Shown here: positions 8,994-52,020 of the stretch, piece after piece
Layout of the letters: each line of letters begins with the position of its first letter
How positions within the stretch are numbered: the stretch's first letter is position 1
Virus record (IMG/VR): IMGVR_UViG_2534681675_000025
Location: 1 to 57,091 of that record
Source: a virus
Lineage: Duplodnaviria > Heunggongvirae > Uroviricota > Caudoviricetes
DNA: 57,091 nucleotides
Direction: 5' to 3' (one strand)
The notes under the pieces: model-generated
Database searches by the model: none
Told to the model about the DNA's origin: nothing
Seen by the model: only the letters and a program-made list of their open reading frames with translations
Translations under genes and position numbers: made by a program

Positions 8994-9005
8994 AATAGGT
9001 CTCCA

Positions 9006-17439: not shown

Positions 17440-17549
17440 CGCGCGCTCATGGTTGAATTAATGAAATTATGGTGTTAAATAGGCTAGCTTTTTAAGTCGT
17501 GAATATTCAATTTTTCAACTCATTTTTTTCATAGGGAGGAGTAATTGAC

Positions 17550-18248: not shown

Positions 18249-18256
18249 GTTCGGAA

Positions 18257-21057: not shown

Positions 21058-21199
21058 GGCACAAACCTACAGCCTTGAATGAAGGCTTTCCCCGCCTGCG
21101 GTTTGTGTGGTTGTCGGTACAAATACCGCGCATTGTTTCACTGCCCCCATCACCGCAACCATAAGGCTCCAGTAAGTTTTTTCTAACGGAGCACGGCTC

Positions 21200-22033: not shown

Positions 22034-22049
22034 TGGAGCATAAAACCCA

Positions 22050-23108: not shown

Positions 23109-23111
23109 ACC

Positions 23112-23762: not shown

Positions 23763-23857
23763 CAGAACGTGCCCCCGCGCACGGGCGGCACGGGGTGGCG
23801 AAAGGCACTGCCACATCAAAACCCCGTCCACCGCCCTTTATTTCAGGAGAAAGCAGC

Positions 23858-24322: not shown

Positions 24323-24525
24323 TGAAAGTGCGTGCGCATCAGTATGACACGGTGGACGCACTTTGCTGGCGTCATTACGGGCGCACGCAGGGTGTCACGG
24401 AGCAGGTACTGAAGGCAAATCCGGGGCTTGCCGAATACGGCCCCTTTTTACCTCTCGGGCTGCAGGTGGAGCTGCCGGACATTCCGACAACCACCACCGT
24501 GCAGACCGTCCAGCTATGGGACTGA
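24322..24525 (+). CDS. X: Tail protein X (P2 gpX family)
   Basis: 67 aa, MKVRAHQYDTVDALCWRHYG...; homologous copy in prophage 2. Confidence 0.8.
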   Translation: MKVRAHQYDTVDALCWRHYGRTQGVTEQVLKANPGLAEYGPFLPLGLQVELPDIPTTTTVQTVQLWD

Positions 24526-24528
24526 ATT

Positions 24529-24744
24529 ATGACGCTTGAGCGAATCAGCGCCTTTATCACGTATTGCATCGCCGTCGTGCTGGCCTGGCTGGGCGATTTG
24601 TCCATCAAGGATGCCTCAACGCTGGGCGGCCTGATGATTGGTGTGCTGATGCTGGCTATCAACTGGTACTACAAACACAAAGCCTACCAGCTTCTGCGCG
24701 ACGGGCAGATTTCGCGGGAGGACTATGAATCCATCAATCGTTAA
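24529..24744 (+). CDS. Putative holin
   Basis: 71 aa, two hydrophobic segments, directly upstream of the endolysin. Confidence 0.6.
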   Translation: MTLERISAFITYCIAVVLAWLGDLSIKDASTLGGLMIGVLMLAINWYYKHKAYQLLRDGQISREDYESINR

Positions 24745-25240
24745 ACGCTGCCTTGTCGGAGCCGTGCTGGCTATTGCTGCCACGCTGCCGGGGTTTCAGC
24801 AGCTTCACACCTCCGTGGAGGGGCTGAAACTGATTGCCGATTACGAAGGTTGTCGTCTGCAGCCGTATCAGTGCAGCGCGGGTGTCTGGACCGACGGCAT
24901 TGGAAATACGTCGGGCGTCATTCCCGGCAAAACAATCACGGAACGACAGGCAGCAGAAGGGCTTATTTCCAACGTGCTGCGTGTGGAGCGGGCGCTGGAA
25001 AGGTGTGTGAAGCAACAGCCGCCGCAGAAGGTATATGACGCTACGGTGTCGTTTGCCTTCAACGTGGGAACGGGCAATGCCTGCAGTTCTACGCTGGTGA
25101 AATTGCTCAATCAGCGGCGCTGGGCAGAAGCGTGCCGACAGTTGCCGCGCTGGGTTTATGTGAAAGGTGTGTTTAATCAGGGGCTGGATAACCGCCGTGC
25201 GCGGGAGATGGCCTGGTGCCTTAAAGGAGCTGGATTATGA
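24725..25240 (+). CDS. K: Endolysin, phage lysozyme type (P2 gpK-like)
   Basis: 171 aa; YEGCRLQPYQCSAGVWTDGIGNT lysozyme-type catalytic region. Confidence 0.85.
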   Translation: MNPSIVKRCLVGAVLAIAATLPGFQQLHTSVEGLKLIADYEGCRLQPYQCSAGVWTDGIGNTSGVIPGKTITERQAAEGLISNVLRVERALERCVKQQPPQKVYDATVSFAFNVGTGNACSSTLVKLLNQRRWAEACRQLPRWVYVKGVFNQGLDNRRAREMAWCLKGAGL

Positions 25241-25665
25241 CGCGTGCGCTGGCGGTAGTGGCGGCGCTGGCACTCGTTGCGCTGGGCTGGCAGTCGTGGC
25301 GGCTTAACAGCGCCAGCCACACCATCGAAACGCAGCGCGCGGCGCTGAAAAGTAAAGCGCACGAACTAACGAAGAAAAATAGCCAGCTGATCAGTCTGTC
25401 CATTCTGGCTGAAACCAATAACAGGGAGCAGGCGCGGCTCTATGCCGAAGCAGAACAGACCAGCGCGCTGCTGAGACAACGACAACACCGGATCGAGGAA
25501 CTGAAACGTGAGAACGAGGATTTACGCCGCTGGGCTGATACTCCTTTGCCTGCTGACATTATCCGGCTGCGGGAACGTCCGGCACTCACCGGAGGTGCAG
25601 CTTACCGTCAGTGGTTGTCCGCGAGTGACGCCGTGTCGGCTGGAGCAGGCAGCGCCGCGCACTAA
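25237..25665 (+). CDS. Rz-like i-spanin (LysB-like)
   Basis: 142 aa, N-terminal transmembrane segment then coiled-coil-like region, after the endolysin. Confidence 0.65.
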   Translation: MTRALAVVAALALVALGWQSWRLNSASHTIETQRAALKSKAHELTKKNSQLISLSILAETNNREQARLYAEAEQTSALLRQRQHRIEELKRENEDLRRWADTPLPADIIRLRERPALTGGAAYRQWLSASDAVSAGAGSAAH

Positions 25666-25798
25666 CGGTGATCTGAACGCATTGCTGGATGAAACGGAGG
25701 CCGCCTGGGCGGTCTGTGCAGACAAAGTGGACATGATTATTGCGTGTCAGGAGCGAAACAGTGAACAAACCACAATCCCTGCGCCACGCCCTCAATAA
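25508..25798 (+). CDS. Rz1-like o-spanin lipoprotein (LysC-like), overlapping LysB in another frame
   Basis: Lipobox LTLSGC, Pro-rich; embedded/overlapping arrangement typical of spanin pairs. Confidence 0.5.
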   Translation: MRTRIYAAGLILLCLLTLSGCGNVRHSPEVQLTVSGCPRVTPCRLEQAAPRTNGDLNALLDETEAAWAVCADKVDMIIACQERNSEQTTIPAPRPQ

Positions 25799-26192
25799 AG
25801 CAGTGCCTTATGTCCGCAATAACCCGGATAAGCTGCATCTGTTTGTGGATAACGGTTCGCTGGTTGCCACGGGGGCCAGCTCCATGTCATGGGAGTACCG
25901 TTATACCCTCAACGTGGTGATTGAGGATTTCAGCGGCGACCAGAATCTGCTGATGGCCCCGGTTTTGCTGTGGCTGCGTGATAACCAGCCCGATGCCATC
26001 AATAATCCGGCGTTACGGGAAAAGTTATTCACCTTTGAGGTGGATATTCTGCGCAACGATGTCTGTGATATCAGCCTCAACCTGCAACTGACGGAACGTG
26101 TGCTGGTCAGCACTGACGGAAGTGTGTCGAGCGTTGAAGCAGTAGCGGAACCCGATGAACCTGAAGAAATGTGGACGGTGAAACGTGGCTGA
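25761..26192 (+). CDS. R: Tail completion protein (P2 gpR family); start uncertain (TTG 25740 or GTG 25761)
   Basis: Position and sequence similar to prophage 2 R; RBS-like caggag before GTG 25761. Confidence 0.7.
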   Translation: MNKPQSLRHALNKAVPYVRNNPDKLHLFVDNGSLVATGASSMSWEYRYTLNVVIEDFSGDQNLLMAPVLLWLRDNQPDAINNPALREKLFTFEVDILRNDVCDISLNLQLTERVLVSTDGSVSSVEAVAEPDEPEEMWTVKRG

Positions 26193-26637
26193 ACTGCAGA
26201 AGGTGGACGACTGGCTGAGTGCTTTGCTGGCGAATCTGGAACCAGCCGCAAGAAGCCGAATGATGCGCCAGCTGGCGCAGGAACTGCGCCGGACACAGCA
26301 GCAGAATATCAGGATGCAGCGCAATCCAGATGGCAGCAGTTATGAGCCGCGCAGGGTAACAGCACGCAGCAAGAAGGGGCGCATCAAACGTCAGATGTTT
26401 GCAAAGCTGCGCACCACAAAATACCTGAGAACTGCCGCCAGCGCGGATTCTGCCAGCGTACAGTTTGAAGGTAAGGTACAGCGTATTGCCCGTGTTCATC
26501 ACTACGGTCTGCGCGATCGCGTCAGTCCAAAGGGGGGAGTCATTAAGTATCCATCCCGAAAATTGCTGGGTTTAAATGAACATACTGAAAATGAAGTAAG
26601 AGATTTACTTTTAAAGTATTTATTGATGAAAAATTAG
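26185..26637 (+). CDS. S: Tail completion/virion morphogenesis protein (P2 gpS family)
   Basis: 150 aa, GTG start overlapping R. Confidence 0.8.
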   Translation: MAELQKVDDWLSALLANLEPAARSRMMRQLAQELRRTQQQNIRMQRNPDGSSYEPRRVTARSKKGRIKRQMFAKLRTTKYLRTAASADSASVQFEGKVQRIARVHHYGLRDRVSPKGGVIKYPSRKLLGLNEHTENEVRDLLLKYLLMKN

Positions 26638-26642
26638 AATGT

Positions 26643-27212
26643 TTACGCTCTTAATAAACTTAAATAACTTTTTATGCTTTGGCAAAAAGGGAAAAGGTCT
26701 ATTTTAATTTTCCAGTTTTTTTTGTTTTGAACCCCAGAAGCAATAATAGAACCGTCCCAATATTTTATTCCATTTTTGCCGGTCTTTTTTGTTAACTCAA
26801 AACTTAATGCGTGAATAATTTTATTGCAGCATTCGCGTATAGAATCTTTAACATGACCATCTATAACAAAAAGTATATTTTCATGTTCTTCAAATGCTTC
26901 TTTCTCAGGTGAGTAATCTGGGTTCCACTCATGTTCACTAGTGTCTTGGAGAATTCGTAGTTTTGTACAAAGGCTAATAAGATTGTTGCTAATGGTATAT
27001 TCCAACCATCCGTTGTACGATAACTCCTCCATTTCAAATTCAGTTACTATAGAACCATCATATACTTTCTGTGTGGAATATATACGCTGTAAATAAAATT
27101 CAGATGAACAGCATAATTGCTCAATTATTCTTGCGTGTTCTTCTATAGCGTAATAATCAATTGGATGGCTCATTCTTTTACCTTTCTTTGATTGGAATTG
27201 TATTTGTGTCAT
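26643..27212 (-). CDS. Hypothetical AT-rich protein inserted between S and V; start 27212 or 27173
   Basis: 189-aa (or 176-aa) ORF on the opposite strand to the flanking tail genes; AT-rich; no recognisable motif. Confidence 0.6.
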   Translation of the reverse strand: MTQIQFQSKKGKRMSHPIDYYAIEEHARIIEQLCCSSEFYLQRIYSTQKVYDGSIVTEFEMEELSYNGWLEYTISNNLISLCTKLRILQDTSEHEWNPDYSPEKEAFEEHENILFVIDGHVKDSIRECCNKIIHALSFELTKKTGKNGIKYWDGSIIASGVQNKKNWKIKIDLFPFCQSIKSYLSLLRA

Positions 27213-27268
27213 TTACCACACAAGGACGTATTGATGCCATAGATTCAAGGTCCGTGCAACCTAACCCT

Positions 27269-27847
27269 ATGAACGCACAACTAACCGAAATCATGCGCCT
27301 TATCACCAACCTGATCCGCACTGGTGTAGTCACCGAAGTGGACCGGGAAAACTGGCTTTGCCGGGTTAAAACGGGCGAGCTTGAAACCAACTGGATCAGC
27401 TGGCTGACGCTGCGTGCCGGGAATGCCCGCACATGGTGGCGACCATCGGAAGGTGAGCAGGTGGTGCTGCTGAGTCTGGGCGGCAATCTGGAAACTGCCT
27501 TTGCGCTGCCCGCTGTCTATTCGAATCAGTTCGCACCACCGTCGACGTCGGCAGACGCCTGCGTGACAGAACATCCTGACGGCGGCTGGTTTGAATACGA
27601 ACCCACTACCGGGCGCTGGTATGTCAGGGGCATCAAATCAATGGTCATTGAGGCCGCTGACAACATCACCATGAAAACCAGTGAGTTTGTACTGGAGGCT
27701 GACCGCACGCGCATTAACAGCGAAGTGGTGATCAATGGTGGCGTTACCCAGGGCGGCGGAGCGATGAGTTCTAACGGGATCGTGGTTGATGCGCATCAGC
27801 ATACTGACGTCCTGAAAGGCGGCGACACAACCGGAGGCCCGGTATGA
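27269..27847 (+). CDS. V: Baseplate spike/assembly protein (P2 gpV family)
   Basis: Begins MNAQLTEIMRLITNLIRTG, similar to P2 V N-terminus as recalled. Confidence 0.85.
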   Translation: MNAQLTEIMRLITNLIRTGVVTEVDRENWLCRVKTGELETNWISWLTLRAGNARTWWRPSEGEQVVLLSLGGNLETAFALPAVYSNQFAPPSTSADACVTEHPDGGWFEYEPTTGRWYVRGIKSMVIEAADNITMKTSEFVLEADRTRINSEVVINGGVTQGGGAMSSNGIVVDAHQHTDVLKGGDTTGGPV

Positions 27848-28203
27848 CGCTTTATAGCGGGATGAACAATACCAGCGGTAAAGCCATTACTGATATTGAT
27901 CATCTGCGCCAGTCGGTGCGGGACATTTTGCTGACGCCGCAGGGTAGCCGCATTGCCCGTCGGGAATATGGTTCCCTGCTGTCGGCACTGATAGACCAGC
28001 CACAAAATCCGGCATTACGCCTGCAGGTCATGTCGGCAGTGTATGTGGCGCTGAGTCGCTGGGAGCCACGGCTGACGCTGGATTCCATCACCATTAACAG
28101 CAATTTTGACGGTTCAATGGTGGTGGAGCTGACCGGGCGGCGTAATAACGGTGTGCCTGTTTCCCTTTCCGTATCAACAGGAGCAGAGAATGGCAGTGAT
28201 TGA
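27844..28203 (+). CDS. W: Baseplate protein (P2 gpW family)
   Basis: 119 aa, overlaps V stop. Confidence 0.85.
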   Translation: MTLYSGMNNTSGKAITDIDHLRQSVRDILLTPQGSRIARREYGSLLSALIDQPQNPALRLQVMSAVYVALSRWEPRLTLDSITINSNFDGSMVVELTGRRNNGVPVSLSVSTGAENGSD

Positions 28204-29098
28204 CCTTTCGCAGTTGCCTGCGCCGCAGATTGTGGATGTGCCGGACTTTGAGACGCTGCTTGCCGAACGCAAGGCAGAATTTGTGGCGCTTCATCCGAAA
28301 GATGAGCAGGAAGCAGTGATCCGCACGCTGGAACTGGAATCTGAACCCGTCACCAAATTGTTGCAGGAGAATGCTTACCGTGAGTTGCTTCTGCGCCAGC
28401 GCATTAACGAAGCCGCGCAGGCGGTGATGGTGGCTTATGCCATAGGGGGCGATCTGGACCAGCTCGCCGCCAACTACAACGTGAAACGCCTGACGGTGAC
28501 GCCTGCTGATAATGACGCTGTGCCGCCCGTTGCAGCTGTGATGGAAAGCGATGAAGCGTTACGCCTGCGTGTGCCTGCAGCCTTTGAAGGGCTTTCAGTT
28601 GCGGGGCCAACTGCAGCTTATGAATTTCATGCCCGAAGCGCCGACGGTCGGGTGGCGGATGCCAGTGCAACCAGCCCAGCACCTGCAGAGGTGGTGCTGA
28701 CTGTCCTTAGCCGCGAAGGCGATGGAACTGCAGAAAAAGACCTGCTGGACGTGGTGAAAAAAGCTCTGAACAGTGAGAACGTCCGCCCGGTGGCTGACCG
28801 TCTTACGGTTCGCAGCGCAGAAATCATCCCGTATCGCGTGGAAGCCACCATTTTTCTCTATCCGGGACCGGAAGCAGAGCCGGTAATGGCAGCGGCAAAA
28901 GCCAGTCTGCAGAAGTACATTGCCAGCCAGACGAGGCTTGGTCGGGATATTCGCCGTAGCGCCATCTTTGCTGCTCTGCATGTTGAGGGTGTTCAACGTG
29001 TGGAACTGGCTTCTCCGCTGGCGGATGTGGTCCTGAACAAAACACAGGCGGCATCATGTACGCAGTGGAGCGTAACCAACGGAGGAACGGATGAATAG
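28190..29098 (+). CDS. J: Baseplate protein (P2 gpJ family)
   Basis: ATG 28190 (MAVIDLSQLP...); 302 aa. Confidence 0.85.
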   Translation: MAVIDLSQLPAPQIVDVPDFETLLAERKAEFVALHPKDEQEAVIRTLELESEPVTKLLQENAYRELLLRQRINEAAQAVMVAYAIGGDLDQLAANYNVKRLTVTPADNDAVPPVAAVMESDEALRLRVPAAFEGLSVAGPTAAYEFHARSADGRVADASATSPAPAEVVLTVLSREGDGTAEKDLLDVVKKALNSENVRPVADRLTVRSAEIIPYRVEATIFLYPGPEAEPVMAAAKASLQKYIASQTRLGRDIRRSAIFAALHVEGVQRVELASPLADVVLNKTQAASCTQWSVTNGGTDE

Positions 29099-29696
29099 TC
29101 TGCTGCCACCGGGTTCAACTTCACTGGAGCGCCGACTGGCGCAAACCTGTAGCGGGATTTCTGATCTGCAGGTGCCGCTGCGTGACTTGTGGAATCCGGC
29201 TACCTGTCCGGTCAGCTTCCTGCCTTATCTCGCCTGGGCGTTCTCTGTGGATCGCTGGGACGAGGGCTGGACAGAAAGCGTCAAACGCCAGGTAGTGAAG
29301 GATGCTTTTTATATTCATCAGCATAAAGGAACTACCAGTGCCGTGCGGCGGGTGGTGGAACCGTTCGGATTCCTGATCCGCATTATTGAGTGGTGGCAGA
29401 CCGGAGAAACACCGGGCACGTTTCGCCTGGATATCGGCGTGCAGGACCAGGGCATCACTGAAGATACCTATCTGGAACTTGAGCGGCTGATAAGCGATGC
29501 CAAACCATGTAGCCGTCACATGATCGGCATGTCCATCAATCTGCAGACCAGCGGTCCGCATTGGGTGGGGGCCGCCAGCTATCTTGGCGAAGAAATCACG
29601 ATCTATCCGTATATCAACGAAACAATTATTTCCGGCGGCACCGCGCATGAAGGCGGGGCGGTCCATGTTATTGACACAATGAGAGTGAATCCATGA
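29091..29696 (+). CDS. I: Baseplate protein (P2 gpI family)
   Basis: 201 aa, begins MNSLLPPGSTSLERRL. Confidence 0.85.
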   Translation: MNSLLPPGSTSLERRLAQTCSGISDLQVPLRDLWNPATCPVSFLPYLAWAFSVDRWDEGWTESVKRQVVKDAFYIHQHKGTTSAVRRVVEPFGFLIRIIEWWQTGETPGTFRLDIGVQDQGITEDTYLELERLISDAKPCSRHMIGMSINLQTSGPHWVGAASYLGEEITIYPYINETIISGGTAHEGGAVHVIDTMRVNP

Positions 29697-31210
29697 GCAC
29701 AAAATTTTATACCCTGCTGACGGATATTGGCGCGGCGAAACTTGCCAGCGCCGCCGCGCTCGGTGTGCCGCTAAAAATTACCCATATGGCGGTGGGCGAT
29801 GGCGGCGGAACATTGCCAACGCCGGACGCCAAGCAGACAGCATTGGTAAATGAGAAACGCCGGGCTGCGCTGAATATGCTCTATATCGACCCGCAGAACA
29901 GCAGCCAGATTATTGCTGAACAGGTGATCCCTGAAAACGAGGGCGGTTGGTGGATACGTGAAGTGGGCCTGTTTGATGAGTCCGGGGCATTGATTGCCGT
30001 GGGCAACTGCCCGGAAAGCTATAAGCCGCAACTGGCTGAAGGCAGCGGGCGTACCCAGACCGTGCGCATGGTGCTGATTACCAGCAGCACGGACAATATC
30101 ACCCTGAAAATCGACCCTGCCGTAGTGCTGGCAACCCGCAAGTATGTGGATGACAAGGTACTGGAGCTGAAGGTGTACGTGGATGATCAGATGGCAAAAC
30201 ATCTTGCCGCACCGGACCCGCATTCACAGTATGCACCCAAAGAAAGTCCGACGTTTACCGGGACACCAAAAGCGCCAACTCCAGCGGCAGGGAATAACAC
30301 CACGCAGGTTGCGACCACCGCGTTTGTTCAGGCGGCACTGACGGCTCTTATTAATGGTGCGCCAGCCACGCTGGACACGCTGAAAGAAATAGCCGCAGCC
30401 ATTAACAATGATCCGAATTTCAGTACCACCATTAACAATGCGCTGGCACTGAAAGCGCCGTTGTCGAGTCCGGCACTCACCGGAACGCCAACAGCCCCCA
30501 CTGCTGCACAGTCGGTCAACAATACACAGATTGCCACCACGGCTTTTGTGAAATCGGCGATTGCAGCAATGGTAGGTTCTGCACCTGCGGCACTGGATAC
30601 ACTGAACGAACTGGCGTCGGCGTTGGGGAATGATCCGAACTTTGCCACGACAATGCTTAATGCGCTGGCAGGTAAACAACCGCTGGACAATACGCTGACT
30701 AATTTGAGTGGAAAGGATGTCGCTGGTCTTCTCGCATACCTTGGTTTGGGAGAAGGTGCTCCAGCTATTGGCGTTCCGTTCTTCTGGCCGTCCGCCGCAA
30801 TGCCAGATACCGTAATCGAAAGCTGGTCCGGCATGGTGTTTTTGAAGTTCAACGGCGCGAAATTCTCTGCCACTGATTACCCTGTGCTGGCGAAAGTGTT
30901 TCCTTCGCTGGTATTACCTGAAGCCCGCGGTGATTTCATTCGTATCTGGGATGATGGCCGTGGTGTTGATAGTGGCCGTGCGTTACTTTCCGCGCAATCA
31001 GACGATTTCAAAACGCACGAGCATAAAATTTTAGGGCTAAATGGAAGTGGCAGTAATGTAGTGTTTGGCACCGTTTCGAATGCTTCTCCATTATATACCA
31101 GCGGCGTTAGTCAGCCGGGTGGAAGTGCTTTGCCCGCTTTTCAAAACCCAGGCGGTACTGAAACGCGTCCCCGTAACATCGCATTCAACTTTTTAGTAAG
31201 GGCTAAATAA
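29693..31210 (+). CDS. H: Tail fibre protein (P2 gpH family)
   Basis: 505 aa; conserved N-terminus; internal repeats of the LDTLxELAxALGNDPNF motif. Confidence 0.85.
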   Translation: MSTKFYTLLTDIGAAKLASAAALGVPLKITHMAVGDGGGTLPTPDAKQTALVNEKRRAALNMLYIDPQNSSQIIAEQVIPENEGGWWIREVGLFDESGALIAVGNCPESYKPQLAEGSGRTQTVRMVLITSSTDNITLKIDPAVVLATRKYVDDKVLELKVYVDDQMAKHLAAPDPHSQYAPKESPTFTGTPKAPTPAAGNNTTQVATTAFVQAALTALINGAPATLDTLKEIAAAINNDPNFSTTINNALALKAPLSSPALTGTPTAPTAAQSVNNTQIATTAFVKSAIAAMVGSAPAALDTLNELASALGNDPNFATTMLNALAGKQPLDNTLTNLSGKDVAGLLAYLGLGEGAPAIGVPFFWPSAAMPDTVIESWSGMVFLKFNGAKFSATDYPVLAKVFPSLVLPEARGDFIRIWDDGRGVDSGRALLSAQSDDFKTHEHKILGLNGSGSNVVFGTVSNASPLYTSGVSQPGGSALPAFQNPGGTETRPRNIAFNFLVRAK

Positions 31211-42176: not shown

Positions 42177-43928
42177 ATGATTCAGGACGCTTTTGTGCGC
42201 CAGCGTGCGCGGCAACTTTACTGGCAGGGGTATCCGCCCGCAGAAATATCACGTCTGATGGGAATAAACCCGAACACGATTTATGCGTGGAAAAAACGCG
42301 ACCAGTGGGATGAAACACCACCCGTGCAGCGTGTCACGCAGTCCATCGATGTGCGCCTCATCCAGCTTACTGAAAAACAGAATAAAACAGGCGGTGACTT
42401 TAAGGAAATAGACCTGCTGACCCGGCAGCTTAAAAAGCTGCATGATGGCCAGCCGGATGTGATGGCCGCAGGAAAGAAAGGCCGGGCGAAAAAACTCAAA
42501 AATCATTTCACGCCGGAACAGATTGCCGCACTGCGGGAAAAAATCATCAGCAGGCTGGAGTGGCATCAGCGGGGCTGGTTTGACTCCCTGACCCTTTGCA
42601 GGGAAGCCGGGATACGTAACAGGATGATCCTGAAATCCCGACAGATTGGGGCGACCTGGTATTTTGCACAGGAAGCACTGCTGATGGCGCTGCGTGACGA
42701 TGTGGCGCAGCCTTACCAGCGTAACCAGATTTTTTTGTCTGCGTCGCGTCGTCAGGCGTTCCAGTTTAAAAGCATTATTCAGAAGGCCGCGGCTGAAGTT
42801 GATGTGGAGCTGAAAGGGGGCGATAAAATCATCCTCTCCAACGGCGCAGAGCTGCATTTTCTCGGCACTTCTGCTGCGTCGGCACAGTCCTATACGGGCA
42901 ATTTTTATTTTGATGAATTTTTCTGGGTCAGTCGCTTTGCTGAACTGCGCAAGGTGGCTGGCGCTATGGCAACCCTCAGCGGACTGCGGCGCACCTACTT
43001 CTCCACGCCATCCACCGAAACGCACGAGGCATACGCCTACTGGAACGGCGACCGCTGGAACGAGAAAAAGGCCTCGCATAAACGCCAGCGTTTTTCTGTG
43101 GACTGGAAAACGCTGCATAACGGGCTTATCTGCCCTGACCGGACGTGGCGGCAAATTGTCACGCTGGAAGATGTGGTTAATCACGGCTGGAAACACACCG
43201 ATATCGACGAAATTCGTGATGAAAACACCGAAGACGAGTTCCTCAATCTCTATATGTGTGAGTTTGTCCGCGAAGGGGAATCGGCATTTAACCTGAATAT
43301 CCTGATTGGCTGCGGTGTTGACGGATACGACGACTGGAAAGACTGGAAACCTTTTGCTCCCCGCCCGATGGGGAATCGTCCGGTATGGATTGGGTATGAC
43401 GCAAACGGCAGCAGTGGCAACGGCGACAGCGGCGCTGTGTCCGTGGTGGTTCCTCCGGCTGTTCCTGGTGGCCGTTTTCGAACGGTGGAGACGCGACGCG
43501 TTCAGGGGCTGGAGTTTGAAGAACAGGCCAGAGTCATTGAAGATTTCACGTATCGCTACAACGTGGAACACATCGGCATTGATGTGACGGGCGGGAACGG
43601 GGAGGCTGTTTATCAGATAGTGAAACGGTTTTTCCCTGCCGCTATTCCGTACACCTTCACGCTGTCATCAAAACGGTCGCTGGTACTGAAAATGCTGCAA
43701 ATAATGCGTGCCGGGCGGTGGGAATACGATCGCGCCGAACGCGAGCTGGTCGCGGCCTTTAACGCCGTGCGTAAGGTGAAAACACCGGGCGGCTTTATCA
43801 CTTACGAAACGGACCGCGCGAGGGGGATCAGCCACGGCGACCTTGCGTGGGCAACCATGCTTGCTGTCATTAACGAACCAATTGGCGGCGAAGGAGAAAA
43901 CGAGCGTTTCACGGTTATGGAGTTCTGA
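42177..43928 (+). CDS. P: Terminase large (ATPase) subunit (gpP family), prophage 2
   Basis: 583 aa homologous to prophage 1 P. Confidence 0.9.
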   Translation: MIQDAFVRQRARQLYWQGYPPAEISRLMGINPNTIYAWKKRDQWDETPPVQRVTQSIDVRLIQLTEKQNKTGGDFKEIDLLTRQLKKLHDGQPDVMAAGKKGRAKKLKNHFTPEQIAALREKIISRLEWHQRGWFDSLTLCREAGIRNRMILKSRQIGATWYFAQEALLMALRDDVAQPYQRNQIFLSASRRQAFQFKSIIQKAAAEVDVELKGGDKIILSNGAELHFLGTSAASAQSYTGNFYFDEFFWVSRFAELRKVAGAMATLSGLRRTYFSTPSTETHEAYAYWNGDRWNEKKASHKRQRFSVDWKTLHNGLICPDRTWRQIVTLEDVVNHGWKHTDIDEIRDENTEDEFLNLYMCEFVREGESAFNLNILIGCGVDGYDDWKDWKPFAPRPMGNRPVWIGYDANGSSGNGDSGAVSVVVPPAVPGGRFRTVETRRVQGLEFEEQARVIEDFTYRYNVEHIGIDVTGGNGEAVYQIVKRFFPAAIPYTFTLSSKRSLVLKMLQIMRAGRWEYDRAERELVAAFNAVRKVKTPGGFITYETDRARGISHGDLAWATMLAVINEPIGGEGENERFTVMEF

Positions 43929-44974
43929 TGAGCAGAAAAAATAAAAAAGTGCGCATGAGTTCACGCATTGATCTCGCTGATGCACTCAGGAAAGAATCGT
44001 CGCTCAGTGCATTCACTTTTGATGGTCCTTATCGCCTGACCGGGCATGATTTGCTGGACAATATGTACTGTGCTGATAACGGGCGGTGGTATGAAACCCC
44101 GGTGGACTGGTACGGTCTGGCAAGAGCCGCCCGGCAAACGTCCTGGCATCAGTCTGCGCTTTACTTTAAGCGCAATGTATTGCTCGGTTGCTACATCCCG
44201 CACCCGCTGCTTTCCCGGCAGGATTTCTCGGCGCTGGCGCTGGACTGGTTTGTGTTCGGTAACGCATTCCTTGAGCTTCGAAGCAATATGCTCGGCGAAC
44301 CGCTTAAATTACGGCACGCCCTGGCGAAATACATGCGACGCGGAAGCGATCTTGAATCATGGTGGTATGTGCAGGATGGCAAGGACGCGTTTCAGTTTCG
44401 CCCAGGCAAAGTGTGCCACCTGATGAATCCTGACATTAACCAGGAAATCTACGGCATGCCGGAATATCTCGGCGCATTACTCTCGGCCAGCCTGTCTCAT
44501 TCGGCGGACATGTTCAGAAAACTGTATTACGACAACGGATCCCACGCCGGGTGCATCATCTACATCGGTGCAGCGCAGGTAAACCGTGAAAGCATGGACT
44601 CCCTGAAAGAAACGCTACAGGGTGCACGTGGTGGTGGTGCGTTTAAAAACGTGCTCATTCATGCGCCCAACGGGGGCAAAGAAGGTGTGCAAATTTTGCC
44701 GTTCCAGCAGATCACCGCAAAGGATGAGTTCATGAATGTTAAGTCGGCATCCCGTGATGATGTGCTGGCTGCGCACCGCGTTCCGCCGCAACTGATGGGG
44801 GCGATGCCGGGCGAAAAAAGTGCGTTTGGTGATGTGGAAAAGGCCGCGCGGGTTTACGCAATTAACGAGCTGATGCCTGTCATGGAGGCCATGAAGCACA
44901 TCAATGACTGGCTTGGCGAAGAGGTGATCCGTTTTAATTCTTATGCTCTTCTTGATGAAAAAACAGCCCCGTGA
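43928..44974 (+). CDS. Q: Portal protein (gpQ family), prophage 2
   Basis: 348 aa homologous to prophage 1 Q. Confidence 0.9.
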   Translation: MSRKNKKVRMSSRIDLADALRKESSLSAFTFDGPYRLTGHDLLDNMYCADNGRWYETPVDWYGLARAARQTSWHQSALYFKRNVLLGCYIPHPLLSRQDFSALALDWFVFGNAFLELRSNMLGEPLKLRHALAKYMRRGSDLESWWYVQDGKDAFQFRPGKVCHLMNPDINQEIYGMPEYLGALLSASLSHSADMFRKLYYDNGSHAGCIIYIGAAQVNRESMDSLKETLQGARGGGAFKNVLIHAPNGGKEGVQILPFQQITAKDEFMNVKSASRDDVLAAHRVPPQLMGAMPGEKSAFGDVEKAARVYAINELMPVMEAMKHINDWLGEEVIRFNSYALLDEKTAP

Positions 44975-46078: not shown

Positions 46079-46339
46079 CTATAGCTTTGATGCAGGCTGG
46101 GCTAGATGCAAGGGTTGGACATACCAGCCTTTTGATAACCAACTCTCTGCAACCTCTTTACTCCTTGTTATTGCTGGTATTCCGATGCCGTTATTTACAT
46201 GCATCCATGCTACTGGCTCTGCTTCCAGTGATGCCAGTGCAATTTCATAAGCACGGCGCTCAATATTGTCTCGAACGTCCAGGCTGCCTATGCGCTCTTT
46301 GATTTCTTTAATCAGTTCTTTGTCGGTGAAAGTTGTCAT
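46079..46339 (-). CDS. Hypothetical protein
   Basis: 86-aa ORF in the operon downstream of A. Confidence 0.5.
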   Translation of the reverse strand: MTTFTDKELIKEIKERIGSLDVRDNIERRAYEIALASLEAEPVAWMHVNNGIGIPAITRSKEVAESWLSKGWYVQPLHLAQPASKL

Positions 46340-46349
46340 GTGTTAGTCC

Positions 46350-46613
46350 TTATCCTGCTGTGCTTTCAACTGATGAGGGGAACAAAATCTTTTCATCAAA
46401 CCCTGCATTCATATCATGAACAGCAACACACCAATCCATTGACGAACGATTATCAAGAGCCTCCATGATTTCATCCATGCGGCGCAGGTCATACAGGTAA
46501 ATGCTTTTATCGCCAATGGTGTAAAAACCAATTTTTTTCGGTGATGGGCAGCGATCAAGAACGTCCTGTAATTCATTCAACCATGCCCGTTCTTTTTTTG
46601 TTAAAGTTGCCAT
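46350..46613 (-). CDS. Hypothetical protein
   Basis: 87-aa ORF, translationally coupled to the upstream gene. Confidence 0.5.
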   Translation of the reverse strand: MATLTKKERAWLNELQDVLDRCPSPKKIGFYTIGDKSIYLYDLRRMDEIMEALDNRSSMDWCVAVHDMNAGFDEKILFPSSVESTAG

Positions 46614-46614
46614 A

Positions 46615-47106
46615 TCACTCTCCTTTGATGCGAATGCCAGTGGTACTCATTCTCCTGATTTCCCAGAGCACACGAGGAACACCACCGTTTCCGACCGGAT
46701 CGCGTTTACTCCGCAGGGCGACGCTTGATTCCGCCCAGCTTTTTCTTGGAGGAAGCTCTTTCACACGAACAAAACCAGCTGCGCGAAGAGATGCTCCTGA
46801 TTCATCTGCCTGGGTGTACGTAATACAACGTTGATAACCCATAGCTTTTGCTGCCCGCCAGACAGCACCATAAAGCGCGCTGTTAGCGTTGCGTTCTCCT
46901 GTGGTACATGTGCGATTTACTTCAAGCGTTAATCCATCGTCCAAATGTCGTGCAACAGGTCGACCGGCTGTCGCCACACCTATCAATTCTCCGGCATCAT
47001 TTCTCAGACCAATGCTGAATTTATGCCCCACCGGGGGTTTATTGTGTCGGTGATGTCTGGATATAAACGCCTTCGCAACACGAAGAGTAACCGGTGAAAT
47101 TTGCAT
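46615..47106 (-). CDS. Hypothetical protein; start taken at MQISPVTL
   Basis: ATG at 47106 preceded by AAGGAGAG and overlapping the upstream stop. Confidence 0.5.
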   Translation of the reverse strand: MQISPVTLRVAKAFISRHHRHNKPPVGHKFSIGLRNDAGELIGVATAGRPVARHLDDGLTLEVNRTCTTGERNANSALYGAVWRAAKAMGYQRCITYTQADESGASLRAAGFVRVKELPPRKSWAESSVALRSKRDPVGNGGVPRVLWEIRRMSTTGIRIKGE

Positions 47107-47108
47107 TC

Positions 47109-47423
47109 TCACTCTCCTTTGATGCCAATGTTTACAGTCTGGCAAGCTTCTCTGAGCACCCAGTCAACAGCGTCTTTCCATGCTCCGGTTTCGGTTGGCG
47201 GATTCTCACGCTTTACCAGTTCATAGAAACGTACTGCTCTAACCAGTCCATCTGACGGTTTTGCCTGTAGTGCAGCCTGAGCTATACGGTATGCCTGGAG
47301 CATACGGGCGTCGTTGATATCCATTCCGAACGGAATTTCTGATGATCGTGATTCTGCATCTTCAAGCCTGGCAATTTCTTTACGTAAAAAGTATTTCAAC
47401 TCTTGTTTTTGTTTTCTGTTCAT
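47109..47423 (-). CDS. Hypothetical protein
   Basis: 104-aa ORF. Confidence 0.5.
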
Positions 47424-47752
47424 GTGTTTTTTCCCTTTTTGTCTGCCACTTCTCTCCTGATAATTTCATTGCACAAATCCACGCACTCATTGCAGATGTA
47501 AACAGACGGTCCAGCAATCACCTTTGTGACTTCGTACTGGGATTTATTGCAGAAGCTGCAATAAATCGTTTCCTCGCCTGAAGCCCATGTTTTGCTGGTT
47601 TTGCCAGACATCAGTTGTTTGAGGTCTTTTTCACGACGAAGAACTATCTGGCCACATTCAGCTATTTTTTGGATGTTGACATTTTCTTCTTGCGCCAGCG
47701 CTTCCATCCGCTCAATCAGTCGCTGCGCTTTTTCTCTGTCAATGTGTTGCAT
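47420..47752 (-). CDS. Small protein with ClpX-type C4 zinc-binding domain at C-terminus
   Basis: [39 protein letters not shown] closely resembles the ClpX N-terminal zinc-binding domain (recalled as [39 protein letters not shown]). Confidence 0.65.
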
Positions 47753-47815
47753 TGTGTCCCCCTTGTTTATGTTCCCGGGTTAAAGTCATCAGGGCGGATG
47801 CGCCCTGATGTTGTG

Positions 47816-48127
47816 TTATTCGGGAAATAACGCCCGGATATTTCCGGCCATCTGACTGGTTATCTGTGCGGTTGGTGCTGGCTGTGACACGGGGCGTTCT
47901 GTCCTGGTTTGTGTCAGGGATAACGCTTCATCGTCAGCCCATGCAGCCAGTCGGTAAGCCTCTGCCGGATTAATTTTCATAAGTGCCAGTCCGGCCAGAA
48001 AAGCCACACGTTGACCACTTTTGCGGGCTTCTGGTGTAAGGCTGTCCAGCCAGGCGCATGCTTTGCCTTCGTTCTTGACGGCGGCGGGCTTCAGATAGAA
48101 ACTTATCCGTCTGGTTGGTGTCGTCAT
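47816..48127 (-). CDS. parR: ParR-like ribbon-helix-helix partition adaptor
   Basis: Start ATG 48127 after AAGGAG, overlapping parM stop; RRISFYLKP...LDSLTPEARKSGQRVAFLAGLAL parallels plasmid R1 ParR (RTIAFKLNP...LDSIPQGERSRLNRAALTAGLAL). Confidence 0.65.
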   Translation of the reverse strand: MTTPTRRISFYLKPAAVKNEGKACAWLDSLTPEARKSGQRVAFLAGLALMKINPAEAYRLAAWADDEALSLTQTRTERPVSQPAPTAQITSQMAGNIRALFPE

Positions 48128-48131
48128 TGGT

Positions 48132-49091
48132 TTACTCCTTGTCCATTGCGTACAGCCCATTAACCAGAGCAAACTGTGGCACCCCGTCCGCGATGAAAGT
48201 CGCATTAACTCCGCAGGCTTCGCGGATAGCGGGTGCCACAATCTCCGCCCCGCCACCGACAACCATCACCCGCCCGTAACCCGAAAAACCCGCCAGCGCG
48301 CGGATCACGCGTTGTTTCAGTGTTTCTTCCTTTTCACGAATAACCGCCATCAGGCTGTTGTAATGCGCGTCATTGTGGATGTGCTGGCGCAGCCAGGCTT
48401 CATCATGGCGATGTTCGATAATGGTATTGGCGATGTGGTGACTGGTACGCATACCGTTAGTGGCCATCACCGACAGTACGGCATCGGCCATCAGGGAAAC
48501 GCCTACGTGTGGATCGCAAAACACCTGGCTGATACCTGCCAGTTGTCCCTGAACCTTTGCCACATCCAGCGTGGTTCCGCCTAAATCCACAATCAGCAGG
48601 GATTCAAACGGACTCATGTCAGCCAGTGCTTTAAAGCCAGCCGGAATGGATTCAGGCATAACCCGCACGTTACGGATAGTGAATGCCTCACCGTTCTGGT
48701 ACTCCACCGGGCGCATAACGTTCGCTTTTTTGCGGTTGATGTTGGCCATGTCCGGCTGTGCGTTTGTGTCGAAATACTCGCTCAGTGGCAGGGTGACAAC
48801 CACATCCACCTCCTGTGGTGTGATGCCTGATTTGACCAGCGCGTGGTGAATGGCGATTACATTCACATCGCTGTACTGGTATTGCGTGTCGGTCGTCTGG
48901 ACAAAGCGATCGCTGACCGGATCAAAACCATAGCGCACGCCATCAAGCATGTAGTTCGCAGGCTGCGAGCCACCGAACGGCGCAGACCATTCCGACTTGA
49001 AGCTGTTCGGGCTGATGGCGTTGCGGCGTTCGCTGTTCTCAGTCCATGCCAGCTTGATGTTGGTGGAGCCGTCGTCGATACAAATTTTCAT
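48132..49091 (-). CDS. parM: ParM/StbA-like actin-type segregation ATPase
   Basis: 319 aa; MKICIDDGSTNIKLAW..., SDVNVIAIHHAL, IRNVRVMPESIPAG, LLIVDLGGTTLD, VMVVGGGAE match plasmid R1 ParM throughout. Confidence 0.85.
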   Translation of the reverse strand: MKICIDDGSTNIKLAWTENSERRNAISPNSFKSEWSAPFGGSQPANYMLDGVRYGFDPVSDRFVQTTDTQYQYSDVNVIAIHHALVKSGITPQEVDVVVTLPLSEYFDTNAQPDMANINRKKANVMRPVEYQNGEAFTIRNVRVMPESIPAGFKALADMSPFESLLIVDLGGTTLDVAKVQGQLAGISQVFCDPHVGVSLMADAVLSVMATNGMRTSHHIANTIIEHRHDEAWLRQHIHNDAHYNSLMAVIREKEETLKQRVIRALAGFSGYGRVMVVGGGAEIVAPAIREACGVNATFIADGVPQFALVNGLYAMDKE

Positions 49092-49120: not shown

Positions 49121-49231
49121 CGTTTACGGGGTTTTTAAATCCCGTTTTTGCCTGTTTTATGCGCGCTTCATATATCGCGGCGCGTTTTTTGCTCATTTAC
49201 GGGATTTGTGAATCCCGTTTCTGTCTGTTTT
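49121..49231. repeat. Two 38-bp repeat units each containing an 8-bp-arm palindrome (ACGGGRTT-N4-AATCCCGT), upstream of parM; candidate parC-like centromere
   Basis: Units at 49121-49158 and 49194-49231 (cgtttacggggtttttaaatcccgtttttgcctgtttt and catttacgggatttgtgaatcccgtttctgtctgtttt). Confidence 0.45.
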
Positions 49232-52020
49232 TTGTTTCCATTGGTCAGGCCACCCCGCAGCAGGTCTGCTTTGCGGCGGGCGCGTTCAGTGGTTTCACTG
49301 ATTCTCTGTGCGTGCTCTGCGTCACGGATGGCGCGCAGCATGTCAGAAAGCACGGTAACGGGTGTCTTCATGGTGTTCTGGTCTTGCTGAAGTGTGGATG
49401 CCAGGCGTGCGGCGGCTTCGGGGTCTGATGCCCCCAGCTGTTCCAGATAACTGGCGACCGGGTTATGGCGGATCTCCGTGCTGCTTACGCCGTGATTACG
49501 GCTCAGGCGCTGCCAGAGCTGCGTGATTCGGTTGTCCGGGCGGGTATCCGGTTTGCGTACAATTTCAAATCCCTGCGGTGCAATGATGCTGCCGTCAACG
49601 TACAGACTGCCGCCCCGTAACAGGTGCTGCATCTGCTGTTCACCGATATGCAGGCCGAGAGATTCAGCAGACTCCCGCCATTCTTTAGCGAGTAATTCGT
49701 GGTTATCAGGCAAAGGCCGCTGCTGTTTGCGGCTCTGTGTCCAGCTCTGCATTTCATCACTGCTGTTTTTTGCCTGTTTGTCACGAAGCGAACGCATCAG
49801 CGCCCGGCGTTCGTGCCGTTTCAGTGAGCGCATCCATTCGTTCACTTCAACGCCGTCAGGGAGCTGCGGCCACGGTGCTGGCCGTTCTTCCGGCTGTTCT
49901 GTCCCGTTGTTGTCCGTTTCCTGTACACGGGGACAGTTATTGCCACGAGTCCAAGGGGCGGCAGGGCCGCCCTGAAGGTCAAAACCATTTTCGCGGGCGC
50001 TGTCTTCCGCTTCCGGTTTACGTCTTACCAGCTTCCAGTTATCCGGATGCGTGCACACACGGGAGGATTCCCCGATGAATGGCGACCAGATCCCGTAAAT
50101 CTGTACACTCTGTTCGCCGTAATCGTTCAGCTCATCTGCGAGGTCGTAGGCTGTGCGAATCAGGTAGTCCTTGCGCGGAACAAGTACGCCACCCTGTTTT
50201 TCAATGTAGGTGGCAAAACATCCGGCATCAGCGGCAGCGAGTACCGCATCCATTGCGTCATCCTTCAGCCGTTGCGGGCCTTCCGGGTTGCGTGCCATCT
50301 GGCTGGCAAGGCGGCGCAGTTCACGCCACACCTGACGGGAGGGGATGCCAAAGAACTGGAACTGGCGGACCCGATGAAGGCGCGCCCAGCCGATGGCGCG
50401 CTCCACGCTCTCGGCCATTGATTTTCCGGTTTCGTGGTCAACGCGTGGTTTGCCCGTTTTCGGGTCGATTCCATCCACGGCGCGGCTGTCCAGGTTTTTT
50501 CCGATGTAGGTGGCGATGTAGCTGGTTGGCGTGCCTTTGGAGCCGTCGACGTACTCCACCTTAAAGCGCGGAGTAATATCATTGCCCAGCTCGTGGCGGT
50601 CTTCCTGAATGGCAATATCGCGGGTGATGGCCACGATGCTGTCGATTTCTTCCGGATGAGCAAAGACCATCATATGCCAGTGCACGGTGCCGTCATGGTG
50701 AGGCTCCACCGTGCGGATGCCATACCAGCGCAGGCCGTCGCGGTTCAGTTTTTTGCGGACCGCCGCAAAAAACGTGTTAACCAGGTAATCGCTGGAGTCG
50801 CGCATGGTGGCCCCGTTCCATTTGGGATTCGGATGACCGTTCTCTGTTGTGGCGTGGTATTTTGACGGGCAGGTGACAGTCAGAAACACCGCTTTGTCGC
50901 CACGGGCTTCGGCCAGAAGTTCCAGTCCCTTCATGGTGGCCATCATTTCTGCCTTACGGTGAACCGGGTTACTTACTCCCGCGTAATACACTGTCTCGAG
51001 ATCAATCGTGAAACCGTCTTCGTTTTCCAGTTCGAAGCTCTTCAGGAAGTCGCGGGTTTTCTCGCGCTGTGCGCGAAACTCGCTTAACGCGTCCTGGCTC
51101 AGATAGGGTGATGTTTTTCTGGAAACCAGACAGGCGGCGCGGAGTTGTTCTTCTCTCCACTCACAACGTAACAGCCACAGTTTGCGTTTCCACCAGTCCG
51201 CACAGGTCAGGCGAAGGATTGCGCCCGGCAGCAGTTCCGTATCCGGTTCGCTCTTGTTCAGGGCTTCGTAATGTGGCGGCATGATGTGCAGGCGTAATGC
51301 GATACGAGCCAGCATCCGGTAAGCCTTCAACATTACATCCATGGTCAGCTCGCCATCTCTGGCACCAAAGCCATCGCAGAGTGTTTCGAAGGTGCTGCTG
51401 AACATCGCCGCGGTCATGGTGGCCAGCGTCTGTATCTGGTGCTTGTTGAGCTGCGGCAGGTAAAGCAAATCGTCCAGGCGTTCGCGCCCGGCAAGGGAGC
51501 GATAACCCGGTGTCAGCCAGCGTCCGTCAGTGCGATCCAGACGTTCGAATATTTTGCGCAGGGTTCCGCGTGCATAGCGTTCCGCCTGCCAGCTCTTTTT
51601 GCCTTTCTGGCGATCGGCTTCCTGTTTTTTGCGCAGGAAAGAGAGGTGGCGGCTCAGTGGTTCACGCAGATAAACAGGTAGTGCCTTTAGTGTGGCAAAG
51701 GCACGGGCTACCGGGTCTTGTTCTGTTGCCCGGCGCTTACTGATGATGCTCTGTGCCAGCTTTTCACGCTGTCCGGCTTCCTCAAGGGATGCCATGAGTT
51801 TTTTACCCATGGCGGATTGTGCGAAAAAGGCTTCTTCCTTCGCTTCCTGTTCTTCCTGTGCCCTTTTGTCCGCCTCAAGGTAGTAACGGATGGCGCGTTG
51901 CAGGTCGGTTTCAGTTTCCTGCCTGCGCTCCGTAAATCTGGCCGGATCAATGGCTGGCCGTGGTTCATTCCAGCTCCATGCAAACTCACTCATGGCTGGT
52001 ATCCCGTCACGCGCTGCCAC
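49168..52020 (-). CDS. A: Replication initiation endonuclease (P2 gene A family), prophage 2
   Basis: 950 aa; conserved TPTSYIATYIGKNLD and HWHMMVF regions shared with prophage 1 A; long C-terminal extension. Confidence 0.9.
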   Translation of the reverse strand: MAARDGIPAMSEFAWSWNEPRPAIDPARFTERRQETETDLQRAIRYYLEADKRAQEEQEAKEEAFFAQSAMGKKLMASLEEAGQREKLAQSIISKRRATEQDPVARAFATLKALPVYLREPLSRHLSFLRKKQEADRQKGKKSWQAERYARGTLRKIFERLDRTDGRWLTPGYRSLAGRERLDDLLYLPQLNKHQIQTLATMTAAMFSSTFETLCDGFGARDGELTMDVMLKAYRMLARIALRLHIMPPHYEALNKSEPDTELLPGAILRLTCADWWKRKLWLLRCEWREEQLRAACLVSRKTSPYLSQDALSEFRAQREKTRDFLKSFELENEDGFTIDLETVYYAGVSNPVHRKAEMMATMKGLELLAEARGDKAVFLTVTCPSKYHATTENGHPNPKWNGATMRDSSDYLVNTFFAAVRKKLNRDGLRWYGIRTVEPHHDGTVHWHMMVFAHPEEIDSIVAITRDIAIQEDRHELGNDITPRFKVEYVDGSKGTPTSYIATYIGKNLDSRAVDGIDPKTGKPRVDHETGKSMAESVERAIGWARLHRVRQFQFFGIPSRQVWRELRRLASQMARNPEGPQRLKDDAMDAVLAAADAGCFATYIEKQGGVLVPRKDYLIRTAYDLADELNDYGEQSVQIYGIWSPFIGESSRVCTHPDNWKLVRRKPEAEDSARENGFDLQGGPAAPWTRGNNCPRVQETDNNGTEQPEERPAPWPQLPDGVEVNEWMRSLKRHERRALMRSLRDKQAKNSSDEMQSWTQSRKQQRPLPDNHELLAKEWRESAESLGLHIGEQQMQHLLRGGSLYVDGSIIAPQGFEIVRKPDTRPDNRITQLWQRLSRNHGVSSTEIRHNPVASYLEQLGASDPEAAARLASTLQQDQNTMKTPVTVLSDMLRAIRDAEHAQRISETTERARRKADLLRGGLTNGNKKQTETGFTNPVNEQKTRRDI

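Follow-up and report, generated by a model that had tools for sequence, protein, structure and literature searches.

The adaptors SspB and RssB dock on the zinc-binding N-domain of the unfoldase ClpX, as do a number of substrates, among them λO, MuA, UmuD', FtsZ and MqsA (PMC5415555, PMC8808172, PMC7804408), MuA being one that depends on this domain (PMC5415555; PMC8808172). A hydrophobic region of the domain that includes F16 and I46 (in the numbering of the literature) is bound by λO and trigger factor as well as by SspB and RssB (PMC7804408); L12, L13 and H23 are required for recognition of the MqsA degron (PMC8808172). The zinc-binding domain (ZBD) forms dimers on its own (PMC7226468; PMC8808172), and ClpX without it (ΔZBD-ClpX) no longer degrades λO or RssB-delivered σS and still degrades ssrA-tagged proteins (PMC7804408, PMC7226468). 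Moreover, when purified ClpX ZBD is supplied in trans at 5-20 µM, the RssB-mediated breakdown of σS by ClpXP is inhibited (PMC7226468 Fig. 1d). Here we describe a 110-residue protein that carries such a domain without the rest of the unfoldase and is encoded by a prophage gene, hereafter the ZBD gene, within a 57,091-nucleotide stretch of caudoviricete DNA (IMG/VR record IMGVR_UViG_2534681675_000025, analysed at full length and referred to as the window); we read this protein, tentatively and at somewhat short of even confidence, as a competitive decoy for the ligands of the ClpX N-domain, both adaptors and N-domain-dependent substrates.

The closest functional analogies to such a decoy would be mycobacterial ClpC2 and the Ira anti-adaptors. 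ClpC2 of Mycobacterium is a partial homologue of the ClpC1 N-domain and would share the logic of a free unfoldase N-domain that binds ligands without degradation, whereas it is host-encoded, belongs to the ClpC family, has the antibiotic cyclomarin A as its described ligand and bears no sequence relation to the phage protein (PMC10030653). IraD, IraM and IraP of E. coli are small blockers of σS delivery to ClpXP via RssB, the step at which a free ZBD would also act, and a common docking site on RssB has been proposed for ZBD and IraD (PMC7226468). The folds of these three are unrelated to that of the phage protein, and they are induced by host stress and target RssB specifically, whereas competition for every ligand of the N-domain would be expected of a ZBD decoy. 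Phages encode inhibitors of host AAA+ proteases, namely PinA of T4 and Gp4.5 of T7, which act on Lon, and Gp53 of SPO1, which acts on ClpCP; these are small early proteins that neutralise a host ATP-dependent protease, as the decoy would. None of them is known to be a copy of part of the protease that it targets, nor is an inhibitor of this kind known for ClpX; our literature search turned up neither a paper on a phage protein that inhibits ClpX or ClpXP nor one on a characterised free-standing phage ZBD protein. Already known are the domain itself, the newer RefSeq name of the family that refers to it ('ClpX C4-type zinc finger protein') and the type of locus, which appears in a published supplementary table.

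The ZBD gene is a minus-strand open reading frame (ORF) with an ATG start that, stop codon included, spans the coordinates given in Table 1, exactly as in the original prediction, which had been made from the sequence alone. Its product matches PHROG 6797, a phage family of unknown function, with residues 1-106 aligned to profile positions 5-107 of 107 (E=6.8e-58). Within it, residues 64-99 match Pfam zf-C4_ClpX (PF06689; E=2.8e-18, 66 bits against a gathering cut-off of 27 bits, profile positions 2-38 of 39), residues 59-104 match the E. coli ClpX ZBD structures 1ovx (E=2.5e-19) and 2ds5 (E=6.4e-19), and the 40-residue core is 78% identical to residues 13-52 of E. coli ClpX; Pfam, NCBIfam and PADLOC searches with the 110-residue protein returned nothing apart from this domain. 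The four zinc-ligand cysteines (C65, C68, C87 and C90, in the pattern CxxC-(18)-CxxC) are invariant in the family and correspond to Cys15, 18, 37 and 40 of ClpX. In an AlphaFold2 (AF2) model built from an alignment of 15 sequences (mean predicted local distance difference test score, pLDDT, 74.6), the predicted ZBD fold superposes by Foldseek on 2ds8, 2ds5, 2ds6 and 2ds7 with a root-mean-square deviation (rmsd) of 0.6-0.8 Å and a target-normalised template-modelling (TM) score of 0.87-0.91; with 1ovx included, the ranges are 0.6-1.5 Å and 0.74-0.91. Alignment to ClpX N-domains thus yields a similarity far above chance, and the statistics against PF06689 and the PDB chains agree with the AF2 model in bearing out the predicted ClpX-like domain. 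Its placement near the C-terminus also holds, although it does not literally make up the last 40 residues, as had been suggested, because it occupies residues ~62-101 and is followed by a charged tail of nine residues.

The phage protein accordingly has in common with the ClpX ZBD (PF06689; 1OVX, 2DS5-2DS8) the C4 treble-clef-type fold predicted for it, the zinc ligands and their spacing, and several residues of the hydrophobic patch, and differs from ClpX in that it has no AAA+ motor, IGF loop or pore and carries the domain at its C-terminal rather than N-terminal side, behind a family-specific helical hairpin. An identity as the ClpX unfoldase is ruled out by the corresponding profile (TIGR00382 / NF003745), which scores 49.9 bits against a cut-off of 370.75 and is covered only at positions 6-52 of 414 by a protein of just 110 residues. 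Notes of the RAST type nevertheless call the family 'ATP-dependent Clp protease ATP-binding subunit ClpX', a name that no domain match supports. The name 'carboxylate--amine ligase', which is widespread in NCBI/nr and attached to gp19 of P88 (L002 6415-6747), orf93 of D6 (L003 4980-5300) and clusters P0001-P0013, is likewise a misannotation, with neither a Pfam nor an NCBIfam ligase match behind it.

Conservation within the family follows the ligand-binding surface of ClpX in part. F17 and I47 of the ClpX hydrophobic patch (numbered from Met1) correspond to F67 and I97; the former is invariant and the latter nearly so, A80 (ClpX A30) is invariant and I/L63 (ClpX L13) is conservatively kept, and all four are retained across lineages whose mutual identity is only 57-68%. 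The conserved core comprises, besides the four cysteines, S66, F67, K70, Q72, V75, I79, A80, G81, V84 and I86, together with the C-terminal helix E89-C90-V91-D92...C94...I97, which almost matches that of ClpX (V91, D92, L93, C94, N95, I97, I98); variable positions, in ClpX numbering, are 12, 19, 21, 23, 24, 26-28, 32-33, 38, 45-46 and 48-52. Every lineage shares 70-80% of its residues with the ClpX ZBD of γ-proteobacteria and only 57-68% with the other lineages, whereas the ClpX ZBDs of E. coli and Vibrio are 100% identical to one another; the ZBD of B. subtilis ClpX reaches 67.5% identity to the host-type domain, compared with 78% for the phage ZBD. On these sequence comparisons, the simplest reading is that the phage lineages go back to a ClpX-like ancestor and diverged from it separately, at a higher rate than ClpX itself and with the core kept. 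The phage domain presumably binds zinc and most likely dimerises.

The gene is real, both of its folded domains being under purifying selection with a relaxed linker: across 24 distinct alleles, the ratio of nonsynonymous to synonymous changes per site (pN/pS) is about 0.35-0.41 for the helical hairpin, 0.32-0.51 for the ZBD and 0.6-1.2 for the linker. At the DNA level, the ZBD and E. coli clpX (L005 927-2201) share 65% nucleotide identity with pS=1.00, a value that rests on a small sample of ~28 synonymous sites and is to be compared with ~0.75 expected at saturation; the excess could reflect chance, a difference in codon usage or a need to avoid recombining with host clpX. When the gene was run by blastn against E. 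coli genomes, clpX was not picked up. The saturation of synonymous sites implies that the capture is old and rules out a recent acquisition from host clpX, and, occurring at 78% amino-acid identity and without a DNA-level match to clpX, it suggests that a ClpX-like surface has been kept over a long time. These data also bear on the possibility that the gene is a functionless, decaying piece of a captured clpX 5' end, to which one could relate the truncated or frameshifted state of some database entries. Intact copies are present in many IMG/VR contigs, and 221 of the 5426 complete E. coli genomes in RefSeq have one (at 128 chromosomal and 105 plasmid places), pN/pS stands at 0.3-0.5, the Shine-Dalgarno sequence, ATG and N-terminal domain are conserved, and synonymous sites are saturated relative to clpX; selection and distribution together effectively refute this explanation, which we regard as barely credible.

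The N-terminal half had been predicted to be an unrelated helical segment, a reading that sequence search and model support. AF2 places helices at residues 6-22 and 27-48, with a pLDDT of 79-90 over residues 1-40, and leaves residues 52-59 of the linker disordered (pLDDT <50). A search with the first 61 residues among 1.84 billion representative proteins gave 11 matches only, and those looked at were family members or truncated or frameshifted pieces of them, so that the hairpin occurs solely in combination with the ZBD. Residues E7-K8-A9, E17, E22-E23, L38-R39-R40, D43, L47 and G50 are kept down to ~45% identity, the hairpin domain as a whole is maintained across lineages that are only 36-52% identical, and P2-like phages that have diverged further still show, ahead of the ZBD, a hairpin whose likeness can be recognised. 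The protein thus consists of two selected modules on a free tether. An XB-like pseudo-ligand in the 'LRR'/'LKQL' stretch of helix 2 is unsupported, this stretch being predicted as helical and not kept in divergent members.

It is this hairpin that provides the main argument for going beyond a simple decoy, because a conserved, family-specific domain under purifying selection demands a function of its own. The ZBD might attach to ClpX itself, either by heterodimerising with the ClpX ZBD or by docking on the ring, and the hairpin would then recruit a specific protein for degradation, making the product an adaptor, or obstruct ClpX, making it a poison subunit and global inhibitor. The near-identity of the ZBD C-terminal helix to that of ClpX would fit such a role, as would the self-dimerisation of the ZBD (PMC7226468; PMC8808172). 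Two modules on a linker predicted to be flexible are, furthermore, typical of adaptors. However, the ClpX ZBD dimer is reportedly constitutive, in which case exchange with pre-existing ClpX should be slow, and the C-terminus lacks an XB tail of the SspB type (LRVVK type). On balance, we consider a targeting factor or poison subunit unlikely. An adaptor of the SspB type in particular is ruled out, since the protein has neither an XB tail nor homology to SspB and bears the receptor domain, the ZBD, instead.

We return to the decoy, which we infer from the domain identity, predicted fold, conservation, genomic setting and selection established here; that the protein binds zinc, dimerises, captures ligands and inhibits ClpXP is conjecture, as are who profits from it and when the gene is expressed. 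The original suggestion, a decoy or adaptor that acts on ClpXP, is plausible and gains indirect support from the published effects of free ZBD and of ZBD removal. A free-standing mimic of the ClpX ZBD would be made together with phage replication and accessory genes; its ZBD would fold and bind zinc like the host domain, most likely dimerise and offer the same hydrophobic docking groove, and would thereby bind RssB and SspB as well as substrates of the λO, MuA, UmuD', FtsZ and MqsA type without handing them on for degradation. Because a protein of 110 residues without an AAA+ module may bind but cannot unfold, and because isolated E. coli ZBD inhibits in trans, a motor-less ZBD is expected to be a competitive inhibitor of N-domain-dependent ClpXP. 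The outcome would be selective inhibition of N-domain-dependent ClpXP proteolysis and remodelling, with pore-recognised degradation of the ssrA type going on; degrons of this type bypass the N-domain and are therefore not expected to be blocked by a free ZBD, on which an ssrA reporter would inform only through SspB. The conserved hairpin probably adds avidity through oligomerisation, or a second specific contact. In its broader form, which we hold to be possible but doubtful, this proposal makes the family a dedicated ClpX N-domain mimic of temperate enterobacterial phages and phage-plasmids that switches off N-domain-dependent ClpXP and spares ssrA-type degradation, with the hairpin providing specificity or avidity.

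The likely benefit would be the stabilisation of a phage or phage-plasmid protein, for example a replication initiator, or the blocking of host responses triggered by ClpXP, such as antitoxin degradation. The family is found in replication and early accessory operons, some copies have a Mom-like or Dam-like neighbour, and a related ORF in a Klebsiella phage lies by the replication module; this context suggests a replication initiator, a regulator or avoided antitoxin degradation as candidates for what is gained. CmdTAC, a cargo system of the P2 hotspot discussed below, requires ClpXP and uses a C-terminal Ala-Ala degron (10.1101/2024.02.24.581848), which a free ZBD would probably not block, whereas degrons of the MqsA type would be blocked; the existence of such an N-domain-dependent antitoxin degron (PMC8808172) makes a counter-defence use of the decoy plausible.

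Several observations weigh against the decoy. The equivalent of ClpX L12 is T62, a position that holds T, P, A or N in the family and is thus not conserved, the equivalent of H23 is Y, H or T, position 24 varies too and position 26 is highly variable, so that ligand specificity is possibly unlike that of ClpX. The phage ZBD has changed at 20-30% of its residues where ClpX has changed at none between E. coli and Vibrio, which indicates looser constraint. A pure decoy has no need of the conserved N-terminal hairpin and leaves it unexplained, inhibition in vitro took a micromolar excess of ZBD (PMC7226468), and a promoter scan found no σ70-like promoter for the ZBD gene. Finally, cyanobacterial σ70 factors carry zf-C4_ClpX as an accessory domain (PMC11119718).

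This last point, together with the occurrence of the domain in 136-residue proteins with a helix-turn-helix (HTH)-like segment, belongs to a different interpretation, in which the ZBD is only a zinc-stabilised dimerisation or protein-binding module of a regulator unrelated to ClpXP, acting perhaps on a phage or host protein through its hairpin, and its likeness to ClpX is a matter of ancestry and not of mimicry. The 20-30% drift of the family lineages from ClpX, the variation at peripheral surface positions and the company of mosaic, Ea22-like modular proteins of unknown function are consistent with this. Yet the positions of the ligand-binding surface named above (F67, I97, I/L63 and A80) are kept across lineages only 57-68% identical to one another, and the phage ZBD is closer to the host-type domain than B. 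subtilis ClpX is; a generic module consequently seems to us rather improbable.

The ZBD gene lies in a P88/PhiR44_2-like prophage of the P2 family (Peduoviridae, Xuanwuvirus) that occupies ~33.9-55.3 kb of the window, between the replication initiator gene gpA and the portal gene Q (43928-44974, plus strand; Table 1), that is, in the gpA-gpQ hotspot of P2, a variable region of P2-like phages rich in anti-phage systems (Rousset et al., PMC9122126).

Table 1. Coordinates in the window of the ZBD gene, the segments of its product and the neighbouring elements.
Feature	Position	Strand	Evidence
Hairpin and ZBD gene, complete	47420..47752	-	ORF list; full-length match to PHROG 6797; selection in 24 alleles
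N-terminal domain, residues 1-50, predicted helical hairpin, family-specific	47603..47752	-	AF2, conservation, pN/pS
Flexible linker, residues 51-61	47570..47602	-	Low pLDDT, variable length and sequence, relaxed pN/pS
ClpX-type C4 zinc-binding domain, residues 62-101	47450..47569	-	PF06689, PDB matches, Foldseek, identity
C-terminal tail, residues 102-110, short, charged, differs among alleles	47423..47449	-	Alignments
Shine-Dalgarno sequence GGGGG, 5 nt 5' of ATG	47758..47762	-	Sequence reading; unpaired in RNA fold
Stable 10-bp GC-rich RNA hairpin between parR and the ZBD gene	47787..47810	-	RNA fold
ParR-like gene (Plasmid_stab_B), immediately upstream of the ZBD gene	47816..48127	-	Pfam PF10784, E=1.6e-25
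ParM/StbA actin-like segregation ATPase	48132..49091	-	Pfam PF06406 and PF21523
gpA, P2-type replication initiator	49168..52020	-	Pfam PF05840, E=5.6e-130
Downstream cargo, four tightly packed small genes	46079..47423	-	Gene set differs between phages

The RNA hairpin upstream of the gene (-26.5 kcal/mol in an 86-nt context, z=-4.5; no U-tract on the coding strand) marks the point at which the conserved ParMR block gives way to variable cargo: homology to P88-like phages without the ZBD gene ends at 47761-47823, just past parR and the hairpin, which makes the ZBD gene the first gene of the cargo. The next gene, which shares its first 4 nt with the end of the ZBD gene, encodes a 104-residue Ea22-like protein and is followed by genes for a 163-residue Mom-like XF1762 protein, an 87-residue protein and an 86-residue Ea22-like protein. 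The XF1762-family protein (46615-47106, minus strand) matches NCBIfam NF045478 (E=5e-61) and PHROG 1384 'Mom-like', with the Pfam Mom match remaining below threshold; by this resemblance to the DNA-modification enzyme Mom of Mu, it may be an anti-restriction gene of the same cargo. A block of ~1 kb over its gene (~46218-47253) is ~97% identical on ~42-96-kb E. coli plasmids. Upstream of parM, near-identical inverted repeats ACGGGRTTT..AAATCCCGT are found 73 bp apart at 49126-49145 and 49199-49218, one of them inside the 3' end of gpA; their resemblance to ParR sites of the parC type suggests that parMR, and possibly the cargo too, may have an autoregulated promoter of its own.

Mu-type transposable phages need ClpX to remodel the MuA transpososome. 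The same decoy, if made in the lysogen, could thus be an exclusion factor that blocks rival phages in need of the ClpX N-domain, for example those of the Mu types. The N-domain dependence of MuA (PMC5415555; PMC8808172) and the wealth of anti-phage systems in the gpA-gpQ hotspot (PMC9122126) speak for this, and the parC-like repeats of the upstream parMR operon make transcription in the lysogen conceivable. Against it, PADLOC gives no match at E<=0.01 for the ZBD protein or seven neighbours, the copies on phage-plasmids sit among Ea22/EaA-type accessory genes, and the Mom-like and Dam-like neighbours look like counter-defence and not like defence. In the work of Rousset et al., loci of the form 'StbA + Plasmid_stab_B + zf-C4_ClpX + hypothetical...' figure in the supplementary table only, neither tested nor discussed; the ZBD gene is absent from the main text, where partition genes are considered to permit, perhaps, a plasmid-like maintenance (PMC9122126). 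Altogether, we view exclusion of rival phages as quite improbable.

In IMG/VR, 414 loci encode a relative, and 75 of 80 retrieved were full-length family members; none of 80 loci from a scan of genome contigs carried a short family member, its results being filled by bona fide clpX genes. The carriers P88, PhiR44_2 and D6 have database records under phage names, with their hosts given. In P88-type loci, a ParR-like gene directly precedes the ZBD gene in 40 of the 40 that have an upstream gene present, with a constant spacer of 63 nt from the parR stop to the ZBD-gene start; what follows downstream differs between loci. A compulsory association with ParMR is nonetheless ruled out by five divergent P2-like phages (L046, L047, L077, L080 and L085) that have the gene without ParM or ParR; in such distant phages (gpA 33-51% identical), it lies between gpA and Q, and L077, L080 and L085 carry a Dam-like methyltransferase just upstream. 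In L085, two ORFs of 91 and 121 residues downstream of the ZBD gene, at 8402-9039 on the plus strand, resemble on inspection a toxin-antitoxin pair of the HicA/HicB type, with no NCBIfam match. Full-length homologues with 48-52% identity are encoded by the phage-plasmid D6 and the ~108-kb phage-plasmids PhiR41_1 and CMS-2020a, in each case within Ea22/EaA-type accessory arrays. The locus survey found no constant partner gene, with at least six upstream and at least 11 downstream classes; the lack of a conserved partner across P2-like phages and phage-plasmids implies that the protein works as a unit on its own.

ORFs for a bare ZBD that lacks the hairpin turn up repeatedly among unrelated phages, one of them being the 66-residue ORF of Pseudomonas phage PP9W2. 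The lambdoid Klebsiella phage ST846-OXA48phi9.2 has an unannotated one of 73 residues (L087 1501-1722, plus strand; MK416022.1 ~13044-13265), located after cII and directly upstream of an unannotated gene for a 302-residue protein that precedes a DnaC-like replication gene; the record MK416022.1 annotates a 51-residue ORF on the opposite strand at this site. These ORFs (PHROG 12435) share with the family a ClpX-type domain and a place among early or replication genes of temperate phages, and differ in the missing hairpin and in a ZBD only 40-49% identical; they, too, are uncharacterised. Other arrangements occur in metagenomic proteins: P0036 and P0059 (136 residues) combine an N-terminal ZBD with the HTH-like C-terminal segment mentioned above, and P0105 (185 residues) has a central ZBD and a second Cys-rich region at its C-terminus.

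The window also contains a second P2-like segment (17500-30755), which stands head to head with the prophage that carries the ZBD gene (33867-55302). The former is a Cartapus-like late region, from portal to tail fibre, at 99.9% identity, the latter is PhiR44_2/P88-like at ~96%, and the terminases of the two are just 45% identical. Their junction falls in the tail-fibre region, at ~30.8-33.9 kb. This arrangement suggests that two resident prophages underwent recombination or inversion with each other, or that the element is chimeric.

Should the decoy model hold, the family would show a virus taking over substrate selection by a host unfoldase through a copy of its recognition domain, and would provide a natural, genetically encoded tool that separates N-domain-dependent from pore-dependent ClpXP degradation. 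In the broader and more doubtful form of the proposal, it would be the first protein found in nature to inhibit substrate selection by ClpX. It would add a counter-defence or host-takeover gene to the gpA-gpQ hotspot of P2, usually read as a defence island, and would connect, in a way open to testing, the maintenance of phages or phage-plasmids with clients of ClpXP, among them replication initiators, antitoxins, σS and MuA. Through a protein of the broader kind, a phage would stabilise its own replication or regulatory proteins, or stop the toxin-antitoxin and abortive-infection responses that ClpXP triggers.

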